64,000 nucleotides of DNA from TPA_inf: Saccharomyces (Eukaryota): contig BK006949.2 in the NCBI GenBank assembly GCA_000146045.2, positions 416,001-480,000 on the forward strand, given 5' to 3'. The notes below the pieces were generated by a model. The model made no database searches, was not told the DNA's origin, and worked only from the letters and a program-made list of their open reading frames with translations. The position numbers were made by a program, and so were the translations under genes. Positions 11,927-49,648 of this stretch are shown in pieces (position 1 is the first letter of the stretch; every line of letters begins with the position of its first letter).

Positions 11927-12655
11927 ATGCAAAAACACAATATAAAATTAAACCAAAACCAGGATATTTCCCAATTATTCCACGATGAAGTACCCTTATT
12001 CGACAACTCTATAACTTCAAAGGATAAAGAAGTCATTGAAACTTTATCTGAAATATATTCTATAGTAATCACACTAGACCACGTAGAGAAAGCCTACCTA
12101 AAAGACTCCATAGATGACACCCAATACACTAATACTGTTGACAAATTACTAAAGCAGTTCAAGGTCTACCTGAATTCTCAGAATAAAGAAGAGATAAACA
12201 AGCATTTCCAATCCATAGAAGCGTTCTGCGATACATACAACATCACTGCTTCGAACGCAATAACAAGACTGGAGAGGGGCATACCAATTACAGCAGAACA
12301 TGCGATATCCACTACCACATCGGCTCCCTCTGGTGATAATAAACAAAGTTCTTCTAGCGACAAAAAGTTTAATGCTAAATACGTCGCTGAGGCCACTGGT
12401 AATTTCATCACTGTAATGGATGCTTTGAAACTAAACTATAATGCAAAAGATCAATTACATCCCTTATTGGCTGAACTGTTAATCAGCATAAATCGCGTCA
12501 CCAGGGATGATTTTGAGAATAGATCAAAACTCATTGACTGGATTGTCAGAATAAATAAACTCTCAATTGGTGACACTTTAACTGAAACACAAATTAGAGA
12601 ACTTCTGTTTGATCTAGAACTAGCCTATAAAAGTTTTTATGCTTTACTGGATTAA
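11927..12655 (+). CDS. VPS28: ESCRT-I subunit Vps28, 242 aa.
   Basis: ATG at 11927. The length and position match YPL065W. Confidence 0.8.
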   Translation: MQKHNIKLNQNQDISQLFHDEVPLFDNSITSKDKEVIETLSEIYSIVITLDHVEKAYLKDSIDDTQYTNTVDKLLKQFKVYLNSQNKEEINKHFQSIEAFCDTYNITASNAITRLERGIPITAEHAISTTTSAPSGDNKQSSSSDKKFNAKYVAEATGNFITVMDALKLNYNAKDQLHPLLAELLISINRVTRDDFENRSKLIDWIVRINKLSIGDTLTETQIRELLFDLELAYKSFYALLD

Positions 12656-19764: not shown

Positions 19765-19892
19765 TTATCACGAAGAGTCAATCAATCTTTTTAATACGCA
19801 TTCAAATGAATAAGAACAACTTTCACTTTTTTAAGTATATAAAAAGCCGTACAGGCGAACGTATATAATTAAAATTCTTTGGAAAAAAAGAA

Positions 19893-19964
19893 AGCTCGCA
19901 CTCAGGATCGAACTAAGGACCAACAGATTTGCAATCTGCTGCGCTACCACTGCGCCATACGAGC
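19893..19964 (-). tRNA. tC(GCA)P1: tRNA-Cys, anticodon GCA, 72 nt, no intron.
   Basis: The minus strand reads GCTCGTATGGCGCAGTGGTAGCGCAGCAGATTGCAAATCTGTTGGTCCTTAGTTCGATCCTGAGTGCGAGCT. Acceptor stem 7 bp, anticodon loop TTGCAAA, T-loop TTCGATC. Confidence 0.9.
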
Positions 19965-20059
19965 TTTTGTTGTATAGTTTTAAGGCAATAGAATAATAAC
20001 ACTTATCCACGCAACAGTAATGTGGTTAAATAATAACTTCCTGTCAGGACTTGTGGTTG

Positions 20060-20889: not shown

Positions 20890-21260
20890 TGTTGATAATT
20901 AGAGGTAAAAAATTAGTATTAATGAAGAAGTGAGTACTGATCTTCTTATACTAAATAAGAGAGGTATATAAAACACACGCCGATTGGTCATATTAATCAT
21001 GACCAATATAATAGTGGTTCCGGTAGTTACTATACATTGATGTGACGACTCATATTCCTCATATATGTACCTACCATATCATGTTCAACTAATAGGTCTT
21101 TAACACAGCTTCAGTATTGTCTGAGCTTCTCGTTTAACATTCCTTCTGCAATAGGCGCAATCACACTTAAACGTATACGAGTTGTACATTAATATACGAT
21201 GTAAGCATTAGATTGTTACCATAGCAACTCATGTCACTATTAATTACTCTCGTTCCAACA
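20890..21260 (-). repeat. Ty4 3' LTR (tau), 371 bp, TGTTG...CAACA.
   Basis: Identical over all 371 bp to the copy at 26742-27112. Preceded on the element strand by the polypurine tract TTTAAGGGAGCA. Confidence 0.9.
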
Positions 21261-21332
21261 TGCTCCCTTAAAGATATATTATTGTACTTCAACAGATATT
21301 CATTGTGTGTTTAGAACTTCATTAATTAATTA

Positions 21333-23495
21333 TCAATAGTCTGTTGAGGCCAAAATATCCTGTGATGTTATTTTATTTTTTAATACTTGTATAAATCTTT
21401 TAAAATCAGATGCTGATACTGGTTTTGTTAGTAAATCAGCAATATTACCTTTGCCGGTAATTTTTAACAGTTTTATACTCTTCTCTTTAATTTTTTCTTT
21501 TATTATTTCAGTTTTTATCCAAGTGAATTTCTCTTTTGGTTGTTGATAGCTGCGATTTAATCCTTGAATGGCTGGCTTTGAGTCAGTGATCATGACAATG
21601 TCATTATTGTCTCCTTCTCCTAGCTCCTTTAATGTTACCTTCAACGTTTCTGAGTCTGCATAGCCTTCATAAATGGCATGAAGCTCTGCTTCTGTTGATG
21701 ATACACATCTGTTTGTGCTCTTGTTAGAATAAACATTAAAAATATTCATACCGTACCATAATATAACTCCAATCCTTGATTGAGCATCATATTCTGATCC
21801 AACTGATGCATCAGTTATAGCAATAACCTTCTTGTCTTTATTACAGTCTCGGTCATAGTGTATTCCAATATCTTTATACCGAACCAAGTACTGGATTATT
21901 TTGTAAATCATATAAAAGACTCTTTCATGTGGGTAATTTACTAGTCTAGCCACTTTCTTAACAGCAAAATTAATGTCGTATCTGCATTTGTGTCTGACAT
22001 AGTTTAGTTCACCTAGTAATTGTTGTAGCTTTAGAACACCTTGTCTAAACTCTTCTTCTGACATTTGCAGTACGTCTTTCTTAGGATCTATTTTATAAGT
22101 TGACATATGCGGAATTGAACTTTTTCTAATCTTTTTCAATTCCTCGTTGTATTTTTTATCCATTCTATTTATGAATGATTTTAATGTTAAATCGATAGTA
22201 CCAAGTCTTTTGTTGTATACTAGATCCATTCCTAATATATCTGTATCGAGTACATCATCTATTAATGTTCCTGTAATTTTCAGTTCAAAATTACTTTTCA
22301 ATTTGTTTATGAATTCATCCAATCTCTGTTCATTGCTTGCCGCAATTACGCAGTCATCAACATAGACTGCAATCATTAGATTTTTATCCTCGGTTTGGTA
22401 TAATCCCGGAGTATAAGAGTTATCTTTCAGTCCAATTCCATTCAAGTATTGTCTTAGATGATCATTCCATTCTTTAGGACTCTGTTTTAGACCATATAAC
22501 GCCTTATTTAGCTTGACTACACATCTCCTATCATGCGGATGTGGGATGTATATTTCTTCTTCCAATTTAGCATATAGGAATGCATGATTGATATCCAGGG
22601 TCTTCATAAACATATTTCTGTTGTTTGCAATCATTAAGAATATCTTAATATGATTGTGATTTAAAGATTCTGTAGTTATTACACTGTAAGTGTCTGGTGA
22701 CTGAGTATCACCTCTGCAGACTATCCTAGCCTTATAAATCCCATTTCTTTTCTTTGTGAATATCGTGTTGGTGGGTACTATTAAATTATCAGGGATTTCT
22801 GATCTACTGTACTTCACATCGACATCAAATACCTTCATATCTTTTAAATTCTGTAATTCTTTATGATATGCCTGTTTGTATTCATGTTTTTCTTTGAGGT
22901 CAGGATTTTTTGAAATAGCTTCATTATAATATATGGCTCTAATTTTTTGTGCTGAAACTGTTTCCATATTATCTGGAATTAATTTCACTCGATTCCTTTT
23001 TGAACGCTTCTTATCTCTTTCTAATTCATAGCTTGTTAGACTATTGTTTTTATCGTGTCTTTTCCGTTTTCTTTTCATGTTCAAAGAACTGAATTCTTTG
23101 TTTAAGAAGGCACTTTTATTAACTGTTTGTACTGGTGATCCAGATGCTTCAATATTTTGTTCCAACCTTGGTGACACATTTGTTCCATTGTCAGTTGGTA
23201 CATTTTTATCGGTGACTTTTAATTCTTTTAAGTTATTACCATCCTGACAGTTTGATTCCATATCAGTTTGATCACTCATATCCACAATGTCCTCAATCGG
23301 GGGCGGATGATGATTTTCCTTCTCAAACTTTTCAACTTTGTTTGTGGAATAATCATTACTATGGTGATTGTTAATGCTTTCTAAAGTTTTTATTGGTAAA
23401 CTCGTATCGCCTGTTTTTAAAGAAATCTCATTGTCTGTATTTCGGAATTTTACATTTTGTTCCAATGCTCCCTTCTTTAGGAAACGAAGTTTCAT
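21333..23495 (-). CDS. TYB: Ty4 pol distal part, reverse transcriptase and RNase H (720 codons), in the +1 frame relative to the gag-PR-IN ORF.
   Basis: RT motifs LDINHAFLY and AVYVDDCVIAAS. RNase H region ITDASVGSEYDAQSRIG. The frame opens 8 codons before the ATG at 23495. Confidence 0.85.
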   Translation of the reverse strand: MKLRFLKKGALEQNVKFRNTDNEISLKTGDTSLPIKTLESINNHHSNDYSTNKVEKFEKENHHPPPIEDIVDMSDQTDMESNCQDGNNLKELKVTDKNVPTDNGTNVSPRLEQNIEASGSPVQTVNKSAFLNKEFSSLNMKRKRKRHDKNNSLTSYELERDKKRSKRNRVKLIPDNMETVSAQKIRAIYYNEAISKNPDLKEKHEYKQAYHKELQNLKDMKVFDVDVKYSRSEIPDNLIVPTNTIFTKKRNGIYKARIVCRGDTQSPDTYSVITTESLNHNHIKIFLMIANNRNMFMKTLDINHAFLYAKLEEEIYIPHPHDRRCVVKLNKALYGLKQSPKEWNDHLRQYLNGIGLKDNSYTPGLYQTEDKNLMIAVYVDDCVIAASNEQRLDEFINKLKSNFELKITGTLIDDVLDTDILGMDLVYNKRLGTIDLTLKSFINRMDKKYNEELKKIRKSSIPHMSTYKIDPKKDVLQMSEEEFRQGVLKLQQLLGELNYVRHKCRYDINFAVKKVARLVNYPHERVFYMIYKIIQYLVRYKDIGIHYDRDCNKDKKVIAITDASVGSEYDAQSRIGVILWYGMNIFNVYSNKSTNRCVSSTEAELHAIYEGYADSETLKVTLKELGEGDNNDIVMITDSKPAIQGLNRSYQQPKEKFTWIKTEIIKEKIKEKSIKLLKITGKGNIADLLTKPVSASDFKRFIQVLKNKITSQDILASTDY

Positions 23496-42458: not shown

Positions 42459-42798
42459 CTTACCTTATCTTATCTTCACTAAAGGGCACAAAAGGTTGGG
42501 TGAACGCTTAGTATCCCTCTAGTCTTGTATACTCGTACACATTATAAGTACATTTAACAAATCTCATCCACATTTCTCGAATAAATATCACATGTAACTT
42601 GAAGGTTATTTTTATATTTTTTTTTCCTGTGAAGGAACAACTCGTGTCTCACGAGAGCGCCACTTAAAAAACGAAAAGATAATCGGCGATGACTATATAT
42701 GTATGTGATTGAGAATAAAAATATGGAAAGATAAAAGACCTAGTAACGTTGTATTTCAATAGTGAGGATAACATAAAGAAGTAAAAAGATCTTTGAAA

Positions 42799-43678
42799 AT
42801 GTATGAAGTAATACAGAAAAGGAAAACAAAAATAATAAACGTTTTACAGAGTCCTGAACTCATGAGGCTCATAGAGGACCCATCAAATCTGGGTATTTCT
42901 TTACATTTTCCAGTAAGTTCACTGCTAAAAAGTAATAAGTGCACACCAATGCCTAAACTTTCTACGTATAGTTTGGCTAGTGGGGGATTTAAGGATTGGT
43001 GCGCGTGACATCCCTCTAGACGTTCCACCAGAGATTGATATCATCGATTTTTACTGGGATGTTATTTTATGCATGGAATCTCAATTCATATTAGATTACA
43101 ATGTTCCGTCAAAAAATAAGGGGAACAATCAGAAGTCTGTTGCTAAGCTGTTGAAAAATAAGCTTGTAAACGATATGAAAACTACGTTAAAAAGACTAAT
43201 TTATAATGAAAATACCAAGCAATATAAAAATAATAATAGCCACGATGGTTACAATTGGAGAAAACTAGGCTCGCAGTATTTCATACTGTATCTTCCCCTA
43301 TTTACGCAGGAACTGATTTGGTGTAAACTTAATGAAAACTATTTCCATGTTGTATTACCATCTTTACTGAATAGTAGGAACGTTCATGATAACCACAGTA
43401 CCTATATAAATAAAGATTGGTTACTTGCCCTTTTAGAGCTAACTTCCAACCTGAACCAAAACTTCAAATTCGAATACATGAAATTGAGATTGTATATTTT
43501 AAGAGATGATTTAATTAATAATGGTTTGGATCTTTTGAAAAATCTTAACTGGGTCGGTGGGAAACTGATTAAAAATGAAGATAGAGAAGTCTTGTTGAAC
43601 TCGACCGATTTAGCTACGGATTCTATTTCTCATTTATTAGGTGATGAAAACTTTGTTATTTTAGAGTTTGAATGCTAA
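42799..43678 (+). CDS. OAZ1: Ornithine decarboxylase antizyme. Two overlapping ORFs joined by a programmed +1 ribosomal frameshift: 42799-43005 then 43007-43678, about 292 aa.
   Basis: ORF1 ends ...GGFKDWCA at TGA 43006-43008. The +1 frame continues DIPLDVPPEIDIIDF... with no ATG of its own near the junction. The track start at 42793 is TTG and the real ATG is at 42799. Confidence 0.85.
43000..43010 (+). other. OAZ1 +1 frameshift site: GCG-U-GAC. The ribosome skips the U of the UGA stop.
   Basis: Sequence tggtGCG CGT GAC: GCG 43003-43005, UGA 43006-43008, then GAC is read from 43007. Confidence 0.8.
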
Positions 43679-47839: not shown

Positions 47840-48400
47840 TCTCACTTTCTATTTTCTTCTTTGAGAAACAATACCAAAATTTGTTACTGATTTGATTCTT
47901 TTTAAGTGCGTTTCTTCTGTATAAGCTAAAAAAACGCAAAGCACAAAGCGGAAAAACTAAACCTAATAAACTTCCCCCAGCGAGAAACAGATGTAAAGAA
48001 CAACCGTATCAAGTGGCGAAGCAGCTGCTTATAAGTAAAGCCCAAGGCCCACCAACGCATACATGCAAGGCCTGTGCAAGCCGACTGCTGCTTGTTTCAT
48101 CTTCCGCTCGCGGTGACCCACTCGGGGAATTTCTCACGCTTGCTGCTGCAGGTCGTTGGGCGTTGATTCCTGTTTTTTTCTTTCGTTTTTTCAATCCGCG
48201 GGAGTGAGACATGATTAGTGTAGTCCTTGTAGAGTTCCTTATTTATTTTTTTATTAGTTTTCTTGTTTTCGTTTATCAGCAGGGTTTGGTTGTGTTGCTT
48301 GGCAGCCCGCAAATTGGTCTTCCCTCCTTGTTATTGTATTTTCTGTTATTAGAGCATACAGAACATAGAAACTCAAGATCAGATACAGTTTTTGCACGCC

Positions 48401-49648
48401 ATGTCTCAAGGTACTTTATATGCTAACTTCAGAATTAGAACTTGGGTCCCAAGAGGTCTTGTCAAGGCTTTGAAGCTGGACGTTAAGGTTGTTACGCCAG
48501 ATGCCGCCGCTGAACAGTTCGCAAGGGACTTTCCCTTGAAGAAGGTTCCGGCTTTCGTGGGTCCAAAGGGTTACAAGCTAACCGAGGCAATGGCGATTAA
48601 CTATTATTTAGTAAAGCTTTCACAGGACGACAAGATGAAGACTCAACTTTTAGGTGCCGACGATGACTTAAATGCCCAAGCGCAAATCATCAGATGGCAA
48701 TCTTTGGCCAACAGTGATCTGTGCATCCAGATTGCCAACACCATCGTTCCCTTGAAGGGCGGCGCCCCCTACAACAAGAAGAGCGTTGATTCTGCGATGG
48801 ACGCTGTTGACAAGATCGTCGACATCTTCGAGAACAGATTGAAAAACTACACCTATTTGGCTACGGAAAACATCTCCTTGGCCGACTTGGTGGCTGCCTC
48901 GATTTTCACCAGATACTTTGAAAGCCTGTTCGGTACTGAATGGAGAGCTCAACATCCAGCCATCGTGAGATGGTTCAACACCGTTAGAGCCTCACCCTTC
49001 TTGAAGGATGAATACAAGGATTTCAAGTTCGCTGACAAGCCATTGAGTCCCCCTCAAAAGAAGAAGGAAAAGAAGGCCCCAGCCGCCGCTCCCGCCGCTT
49101 CGAAGAAGAAGGAGGAAGCCAAGCCAGCTGCTACCGAAACTGAAACTTCTTCCAAGAAACCAAAGCACCCATTAGAATTATTGGGCAAGTCAACTTTCGT
49201 TTTGGATGACTGGAAGAGAAAGTACTCCAATGAAGACACCAGACCAGTTGCTTTACCTTGGTTTTGGGAGCACTACAACCCAGAAGAGTATTCCCTGTGG
49301 AAAGTCACCTACAAGTACAACGATGAATTGACTTTGACTTTCATGTCCAACAACTTGGTCGGTGGTTTCTTCAACAGATTGTCCGCCTCTACCAAGTACA
49401 TGTTCGGTTGTCTGGTAGTCTACGGTGAAAACAACAACAACGGTATTGTTGGTGCAGTTATGGTTAGGGGCCAAGATTACGTTCCAGCTTTCGATGTCGC
49501 ACCAGATTGGGAATCTTACGACTATGCAAAGTTGGATCCAACTAACGACGACGACAAAGAATTCATCAATAACATGTGGGCCTGGGATAAGCCAGTTTCC
49601 GTCAATGGCGAACCAAAGGAAATTGTTGACGGTAAGGTCTTAAAATAA
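48401..49648 (+). CDS. CAM1: EF-1B-gamma-like protein (GST N- and C-domains plus the EF1G C-terminal domain), 415 aa from the ATG. The track start at 48392 is TTG.
   Basis: ATG at 48401. The EF1-gamma C-terminal domain region KSTFVLDDWKRKYSNED...WKVTYKYNDELTLTFMSNNLVGGFFNRL. Lys/Ala/Pro-rich linker. Matches YPL048W. Confidence 0.85.
   Translation: MSQGTLYANFRIRTWVPRGLVKALKLDVKVVTPDAAAEQFARDFPLKKVPAFVGPKGYKLTEAMAINYYLVKLSQDDKMKTQLLGADDDLNAQAQIIRWQSLANSDLCIQIANTIVPLKGGAPYNKKSVDSAMDAVDKIVDIFENRLKNYTYLATENISLADLVAASIFTRYFESLFGTEWRAQHPAIVRWFNTVRASPFLKDEYKDFKFADKPLSPPQKKKEKKAPAAAPAASKKKEEAKPAATETETSSKKPKHPLELLGKSTFVLDDWKRKYSNEDTRPVALPWFWEHYNPEEYSLWKVTYKYNDELTLTFMSNNLVGGFFNRLSASTKYMFGCLVVYGENNNNGIVGAVMVRGQDYVPAFDVAPDWESYDYAKLDPTNDDDKEFINNMWAWDKPVSVNGEPKEIVDGKVLK

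Follow-up and report, generated by a model that had tools for sequence, protein, structure and literature searches.

In Saccharomyces cerevisiae, the antizyme Oaz1 directs ornithine decarboxylase (ODC) to ubiquitin-independent degradation (PMC9656687). The heptamer for +1 ribosomal frameshifting in its gene, OAZ1 (YPL052W), has been published as GCG_U.GA_C (PMC12661321), and the shift site is also described elsewhere (PMC3113565; PMC9656687; PMC1874602). The first open reading frame (ORF) of antizyme genes, ORF1, ends in UGA in about 97% of known cases (PMC1874602), and in yeast, termination at UGA is poor when the next base is C (PMC3113565; PMC1874602). GCG-UGA and CCG-UGA are limited to relatives of S. 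cerevisiae, while UCC-UGA is widespread and probably ancestral; a 3′ element, UCCCU, has been described for S. cerevisiae and for species closely related to it, and the S. cerevisiae antizyme mRNA lacks a structure analogous to a pseudoknot (PMC1874602). Here we analyzed a 64-kb stretch of DNA (the window, from whose start all positions are numbered), in which a preliminary description had recognized an OAZ1 antizyme gene with a +1 frameshift site at positions 42799–43678.

Published values for the frameshift efficiency are about 3% when the heptamer stands alone and about 8% when it lies in its native context. Spermidine and spermine raise frameshifting to 22–28%, and very high putrescine raises it to 34% (PMC3113565). 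High polyamine binds the nascent Oaz1 peptide and relieves a ribosome pile-up; on a 49-nucleotide (nt) OAZ1 site alone, added spermidine gives no induction, and polyamine depletion depresses the same site, partly via hypusinated eIF5A (PMC9656687). Published work also reports the 292-residue trans-frame product (...KDWCA-DIPLD...), +1-frame footprints downstream of what is position 43006 in the window, and that in-frame deletion of T43006 does affect Oaz1 level or regulation. We conclude that the locus analyzed here is OAZ1 (YPL052W) of S. cerevisiae, with its antizyme made by a +1 frameshift at an internal stop codon (probability about 0.98). This conclusion rests on the anatomy of the locus, its conservation, exact identity with the curated Oaz1p, transitive sequence homology, and fold. 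OAZ1 and its frameshift are already known in full, and nothing in the locus is new.

Anatomy and identity of the OAZ1 locus

ORF1 occupies 42799–43005 on the plus strand (207 nt) and comprises 69 sense codons, MYEVIQ...GFKDWCA. Reading and translating the window placed its start ATG at 42799–42801; the ORF lister begins it two codons upstream, at a TTG at 42793, and thereby reports 71 residues. Its UGA stop codon (43006–43008) is followed by C, the base that in S. cerevisiae makes for the weakest termination context (TGA C, 43006–43009). ORF2, which encodes the antizyme domain, runs in the +1 frame from 43007 to 43678 on the same strand, with 223 codons plus a TAA (43676–43678). The junction reads GCG TGA C ATC; the skipped base is the U at 43006, and ORF2 begins with the junction codon GAC (43007–43009). 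The frameshift heptamer GCG_U.GA_C thus spans 43003–43009, with GCG (43003–43005, Ala69) as the P-site codon, UGA as the A-site codon, and GAC (Asp70) as the +1 codon. GCGTGAC occurs only at 43003 on either strand of the window, and GCG belongs to the known set of P-site codons (GCG or CCG in S. cerevisiae relatives). The pyrimidine-rich UCCCU element lies at 43011–43015 on the plus strand, beginning 3 nt after the ORF1 stop. All coordinates in the preliminary description, i.e., the ATG, the TTG start, the UGA, the junction, and the end of ORF2, agreed with this reading.

The locus therefore has the two-ORF layout of antizymes, with ORF2 in the +1 frame and without a start codon at its beginning. 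The ORF2 frame is open upstream of the junction, where it overlaps ORF1 by 77 nt on the plus strand (42929–43006), and no ATG was found in this frame from 42929 to the junction. The frame's first ATG lies 22 codons beyond this point, at 43073–43075 (plus strand). The earlier statement that ORF2 has no initiator of its own is therefore accurate up to the junction, but not for the frame beyond it.

Joining 42799–43005 to 43007–43675 gave a 292-residue product. By exact-sequence look-up, all 292 residues were identical to NP_015273.2, the Oaz1p of S. cerevisiae S288C (OAZ_YEAST, "Ornithine decarboxylase antizyme"). The identity of the join with the curated protein, and of the heptamer with the published site, supports the initial assignment as OAZ1 with a +1 frameshift.

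The layout in itself is not diagnostic. We scanned for ORFs that begin with ATG, comprise 50 codons or more, and are followed by a +1-frame stretch open for 150 codons or more; none of 200 mononucleotide shuffles contained such an arrangement, but the real window had four cases, as real genes themselves produce long ORFs. The layout therefore cannot prove recoding alone; the proof lies in conservation and identity.

Family membership was assessed through relatives of the joined protein. When 1.84 billion representative proteins were searched with a profile, 22 relatives came up, with hits at E-values of 1e-38 to 1e-45. ODC_AZ (PF02100, gathering cut-off 24.2 bits) was detected at E ≤ 0.01 in 17 of 21 family members, and four clear homologues exceeded its cut-off: P0009 (28.4 bits), P0010 (31.2), P0011 (25.3), and P0012 (30.2). 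The joined protein in turn matched P0010 with E 2e-46 (BLASTP). Judged by this transitive sequence homology, it belongs to the antizyme family. An AlphaFold model built on a 21-sequence alignment was confident (predicted local distance difference test score, pLDDT, 83.2; predicted template modelling score, pTM, 0.85), and its top Foldseek match was antizyme 1 in 5bwa_B (probability 1.00); the predicted fold is that of the antizyme C-terminal domain. A first model, from a 6-sequence alignment, had a pLDDT of 45.5 and was left out of the fold search.

Several scores weigh against the assignment. ODC_AZ was the best-scoring Pfam family for the joined protein, but reached only 16.6 bits (E 0.0073), below the cut-off, and the match covered residues 204–264, far from the junction. 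When PDB chains were searched with sequence profiles of the family, built from alignments of 5 and 21 sequences, no antizyme came up, only chance matches to haemagglutinin with E about 1.7. The Foldseek E-values were likewise modest (6e-3), with GNAT acetyltransferases ranking close behind antizyme. Because the direct Pfam match is sub-threshold, membership is shown transitively and by fold. The weak Pfam, profile, and fold scores do not conflict with the identification, as they stem from the high divergence of Saccharomycetaceae antizymes.

Conservation across the junction and competing gene models

We compared the window with four distinct orthologous loci, drawn from different species and independent assemblies, for five sequences in total: S. 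arboricola (L003), two other Saccharomyces-like loci (L004/L005 and L006/L007), and a distant locus with 44% identity to the joined protein (L001/L002). In 4/4 loci, ORF1 starts with ATG and closes with GCG TGA C, after which the +1 frame encodes the rest of the conserved protein, and the heptamer GCGTGAC is invariant throughout. The protein sequence of ORF1 is conserved as well, L..YSL.S.GFKDW.A being invariant. If translation of the distant locus starts at the first in-frame ATG, the counterpart of ORF1 there (L001 1358–1702) is longer, at 115 codons against 69, and carries an N-terminal extension rich in Thr and Pro; it could also start at an internal Met, codon 44.

Comparisons at the protein level extended this pattern. 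The N-terminal parts of four full-length models, from Naumovozyma, Tetrapisispora, Henningerozyma, and Eremothecium, align with ORF1. BLASTP gave a single alignment with the Naumovozyma protein (residues 4–292, E 5e-47) and with the Tetrapisispora protein (residues 5–292, E 2e-46), and each crosses Ala69|Asp70. Homology thus runs through the junction, which is the check that the preliminary description had proposed. The heptamer is probably widespread in the yeast clade, since ORF2-only models from other yeasts mostly start with x-Arg-Asp, corresponding to NCG-UGA-C read in the +1 frame. The description of the site as a conserved antizyme recoding signal needs to be divided: a UGA-ended ORF1 followed by a +1 ORF2 is the arrangement conserved across antizymes, but the GCG-UGA heptamer itself is lineage-specific.

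These data bear on other explanations of the frame break. The locus might yield two separate products, a 69-residue ORF1 peptide and a 201-residue protein initiated at the ATG at 43073 (Met92), as the presence of this ATG in the ORF2 frame and the existence of 201-residue database models would suggest. Yet the 22 ORF2 codons that precede the ATG are conserved (D..LD...I..YWDVIL.), the alignments to full-length orthologues are continuous through the junction, and the confident AlphaFold model predicts a β-strand at residues 65–72 that spans it. Scanning to 43073 would also mean bypassing the ATG at 42799. We consider separate products very unlikely.

Still less credible is a tiny intron of about 40 nt (42931–42970, GT...AG) that would remove the frame break. 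Many S. cerevisiae assemblies hold 279-residue automated models of this shape (...SSLLK|IWLVGDLRIGARDIPLD), but both the GTATGT 5′ splice site and the TACTAAC branch point are absent from 42799–43678 on the plus strand. Read in the ORF1 frame, the segment that would be excised, SNKCTPMPKLSTYSLASGGFKDWCA, is conserved between species and keeps YSL..GFKDW.A invariant, whereas the intron model would read the overlap in the ORF2 frame instead; the curated protein has 292 residues.

A pseudogene or a 1-nt sequence error, with the extra T at 43006 as a mutation or artefact, is improbable to the same extreme degree. Such an indel would indeed look like a single-base frame break inside a conserved protein. 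However, the same break and GCGTGAC recur in all four distinct orthologous loci, both frames are conserved at the protein level, and the x-Arg-Asp starts of distant ORF2-only homologues suggest that the break extends beyond these loci. Finally, zero-frame readthrough of the UGA in place of a +1 shift can be dismissed: although UGA followed by C is a leaky context, the zero frame closes after nine codons (HPSRRSTRD*), leaving the conserved protein unreachable, and polyamines have little effect on readthrough at the OAZ1 site (PMC3113565).

Public gene models reflect several of these misreadings. In many assemblies S. cerevisiae OAZ1 is wrongly modeled as a protein of 279 residues (with the false intron of about 40 nt), 201 residues (from the ATG at 43073), or 184 residues, and RefSeq marks several correctly joined orthologues as "LOW QUALITY PROTEIN". 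OAZ1 thus illustrates that automated annotation continues to get this gene wrong, with 279-, 201-, and 184-residue entries standing beside the correct 292-residue protein. It is also useful as a positive control, being a recoding site recognized from raw sequence with base-exact coordinates.

The genomic setting was consistent with OAZ1. Pfam searches of the two flanking genes identified the upstream one, on the minus strand, as a Glyco_transf_15 mannosyltransferase and the downstream one as an Arf-family GTPase. The gene order around the orthologues is the same (zf-CCCH gene, Glyco_transf_15, OAZ1, Arf, Anp1 family), and the S. arboricola orthologue carries the label YPL052W. Judged by ORF lengths, the series of ORFs in the window corresponds to that of the left arm of S. 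cerevisiae chromosome XVI.

Signals at the shift site and proposed mechanism

Upstream of the heptamer, codons K-D-W of ORF1 form a block, AAGGATTGG (42991–42999, plus strand), that is invariant in nucleotide sequence in 5/5 loci, including the 44%-identity one; the invariance extends over AAGGATTGG-NNN-GCGTGAC. The block AAGGAUUGG lies 4–12 nt upstream of the heptamer, and its synonymous positions are unchanged even in the most distant orthologue. A tentative explanation, which we regard as possible but rather unlikely, is that AAGGAUUGG acts as a Saccharomycetaceae-specific 5′ frameshift stimulator, either as mRNA or as nascent peptide (...FKDW). If so, it might explain part of the approximately threefold gain in frameshifting in native context compared to the bare heptamer. 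It is just as possible that AAGGAUUGG is invariant simply because two overlapping frames and the peptide are under ordinary constraint. On the 3′ side, L003, L004, and L006 all have UCCCU but the distant L001 does not, a distribution that agrees with the one previously described (PMC1874602).

Searches for RNA structure near the site were negative. The Rfam antizyme pseudoknot had no match at the locus even at E ≤ 10, where the only matches were snoRNA-like and other chance hits far below gathering scores. The fold of the 90 nt 3′ of the site was not significant (z = -1.69), with 14 of 200 shuffles as good, and the RNAalifold covariation term was unfavourable (+1.96). There is no vertebrate-type pseudoknot at OAZ1 by these measures. 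RNAalifold proposed an 8-bp pairing, kept in 5/5 sequences, between 43005–43012 (GUGACAUC, which overlaps the shift site) and 43058–43065 (GAUGUUAU, within the YWDVIL codons). No compensatory changes were found in the GUGACAUC/GAUGUUAU pairing in the five sequences, and both arms are constrained coding sequence; the pairing is therefore no evidence of structure.

On the proposed mechanism, ribosomes would initiate at the ATG at 42799 and translate 69 codons; at the shift site, the P site would then contain GCG (Ala) and the A site UGA, in the weak context given by the following C. Termination at the UGA would release a 69-residue peptide, while a fraction of ribosomes would skip the U at 43006, read GAC, and add 223 +1-frame codons to make the 292-residue antizyme. 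From the literature, this antizyme would bind ODC (Spe1) monomers and deliver them to the proteasome without ubiquitin, and polyamines would raise the yield of the full-length protein, creating negative feedback on polyamine synthesis. The preliminary description had called the frameshift site polyamine-sensing. The site itself is published, but since its 49-nt version is not induced by spermidine and the sensing of high polyamine has been assigned to the nascent peptide (PMC9656687), that term is best taken as shorthand.

Other frame-split coding in the window and comparison with known systems

Three other regions of the window share the +1 layout. A 53-codon ATG-ORF (11740–11899) ends at a point where the +1 frame, that of a long ORF (11927–12655, plus strand) with its own ATG at 11927, is open, and a 71-codon ATG-ORF (48211–48424) overlaps a long ORF in +1 (48392–49648, plus strand) that is listed from a TTG. 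For 11740–11899 and 48211–48424, recoding seems less likely than a chance or upstream ORF.

The third is a Ty4-type long terminal repeat (LTR) retrotransposon of about 6.2 kb on the minus strand (20890–27112), flanked by identical LTRs of 371 nt each (20890–21260 and 26742–27112). Its coding sequence is split over two +1-overlapping frames on the minus strand. The first (26742–23428, 1104 residues) has matches to Pol_BBD, rve, and SH3_retrovirus and a DTG protease motif; the second (23495–21333, 720 residues) matches RVT_2. The Ty1/Ty4-type heptamer CTTAGGC occurs in frame at codon 362 (25659). Because the gag frame continues past this heptamer without a stop and the +1 frame is closed outside codons 337–410, the copy looks as if one indel had fused gag and pol and the frame had been interrupted a second time near codons 1073–1104. 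ORF calling in the window accordingly fails here as well as at OAZ1, contrary to the earlier claim that OAZ1 is the one such place. A tRNA-Cys(GCA) gene (19892–19965, minus strand), the sole Rfam gathering-level match in the window, lies some 0.9 kb away from the Ty4 LTR; this spacing fits Ty insertion near Pol III genes.

Compared with the published S. cerevisiae OAZ1/YPL052W, the locus was the same in 292 of 292 residues, the heptamer, the position of UCCCU, and the neighbouring genes, with no difference detected. Mammalian antizyme 1 (OAZ1; 4ZGY, 5BWA) is more remote. Its P-site codon is UCC rather than GCG, and in the yeast locus neither the Rfam antizyme pseudoknot nor significant 3′ structure was found. 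The fold of human AZ1 matches the yeast model, but identity is only about 9–13% in structural alignments, and the yeast antizyme is longer, with insertions.

Two further +1 systems share features of the site. The Ty3 GAG3-POL3 frameshift (GCG_A.GU_U) has the same P-site codon, GCG, but its A site holds a slowly decoded sense codon where that of OAZ1 holds the stop codon UGA; OAZ1, unlike Ty3, is polyamine-regulated and a cellular gene. The bacterial prfB gene (RF2, CUU_U.GA_C) encodes an unrelated protein, senses the level of RF2 rather than polyamines, and, unlike OAZ1, uses P-site tRNA slippage together with a Shine-Dalgarno stimulator. Like OAZ1, however, prfB uses as its autoregulatory sensor a +1 shift that competes with termination at an in-frame UGA.
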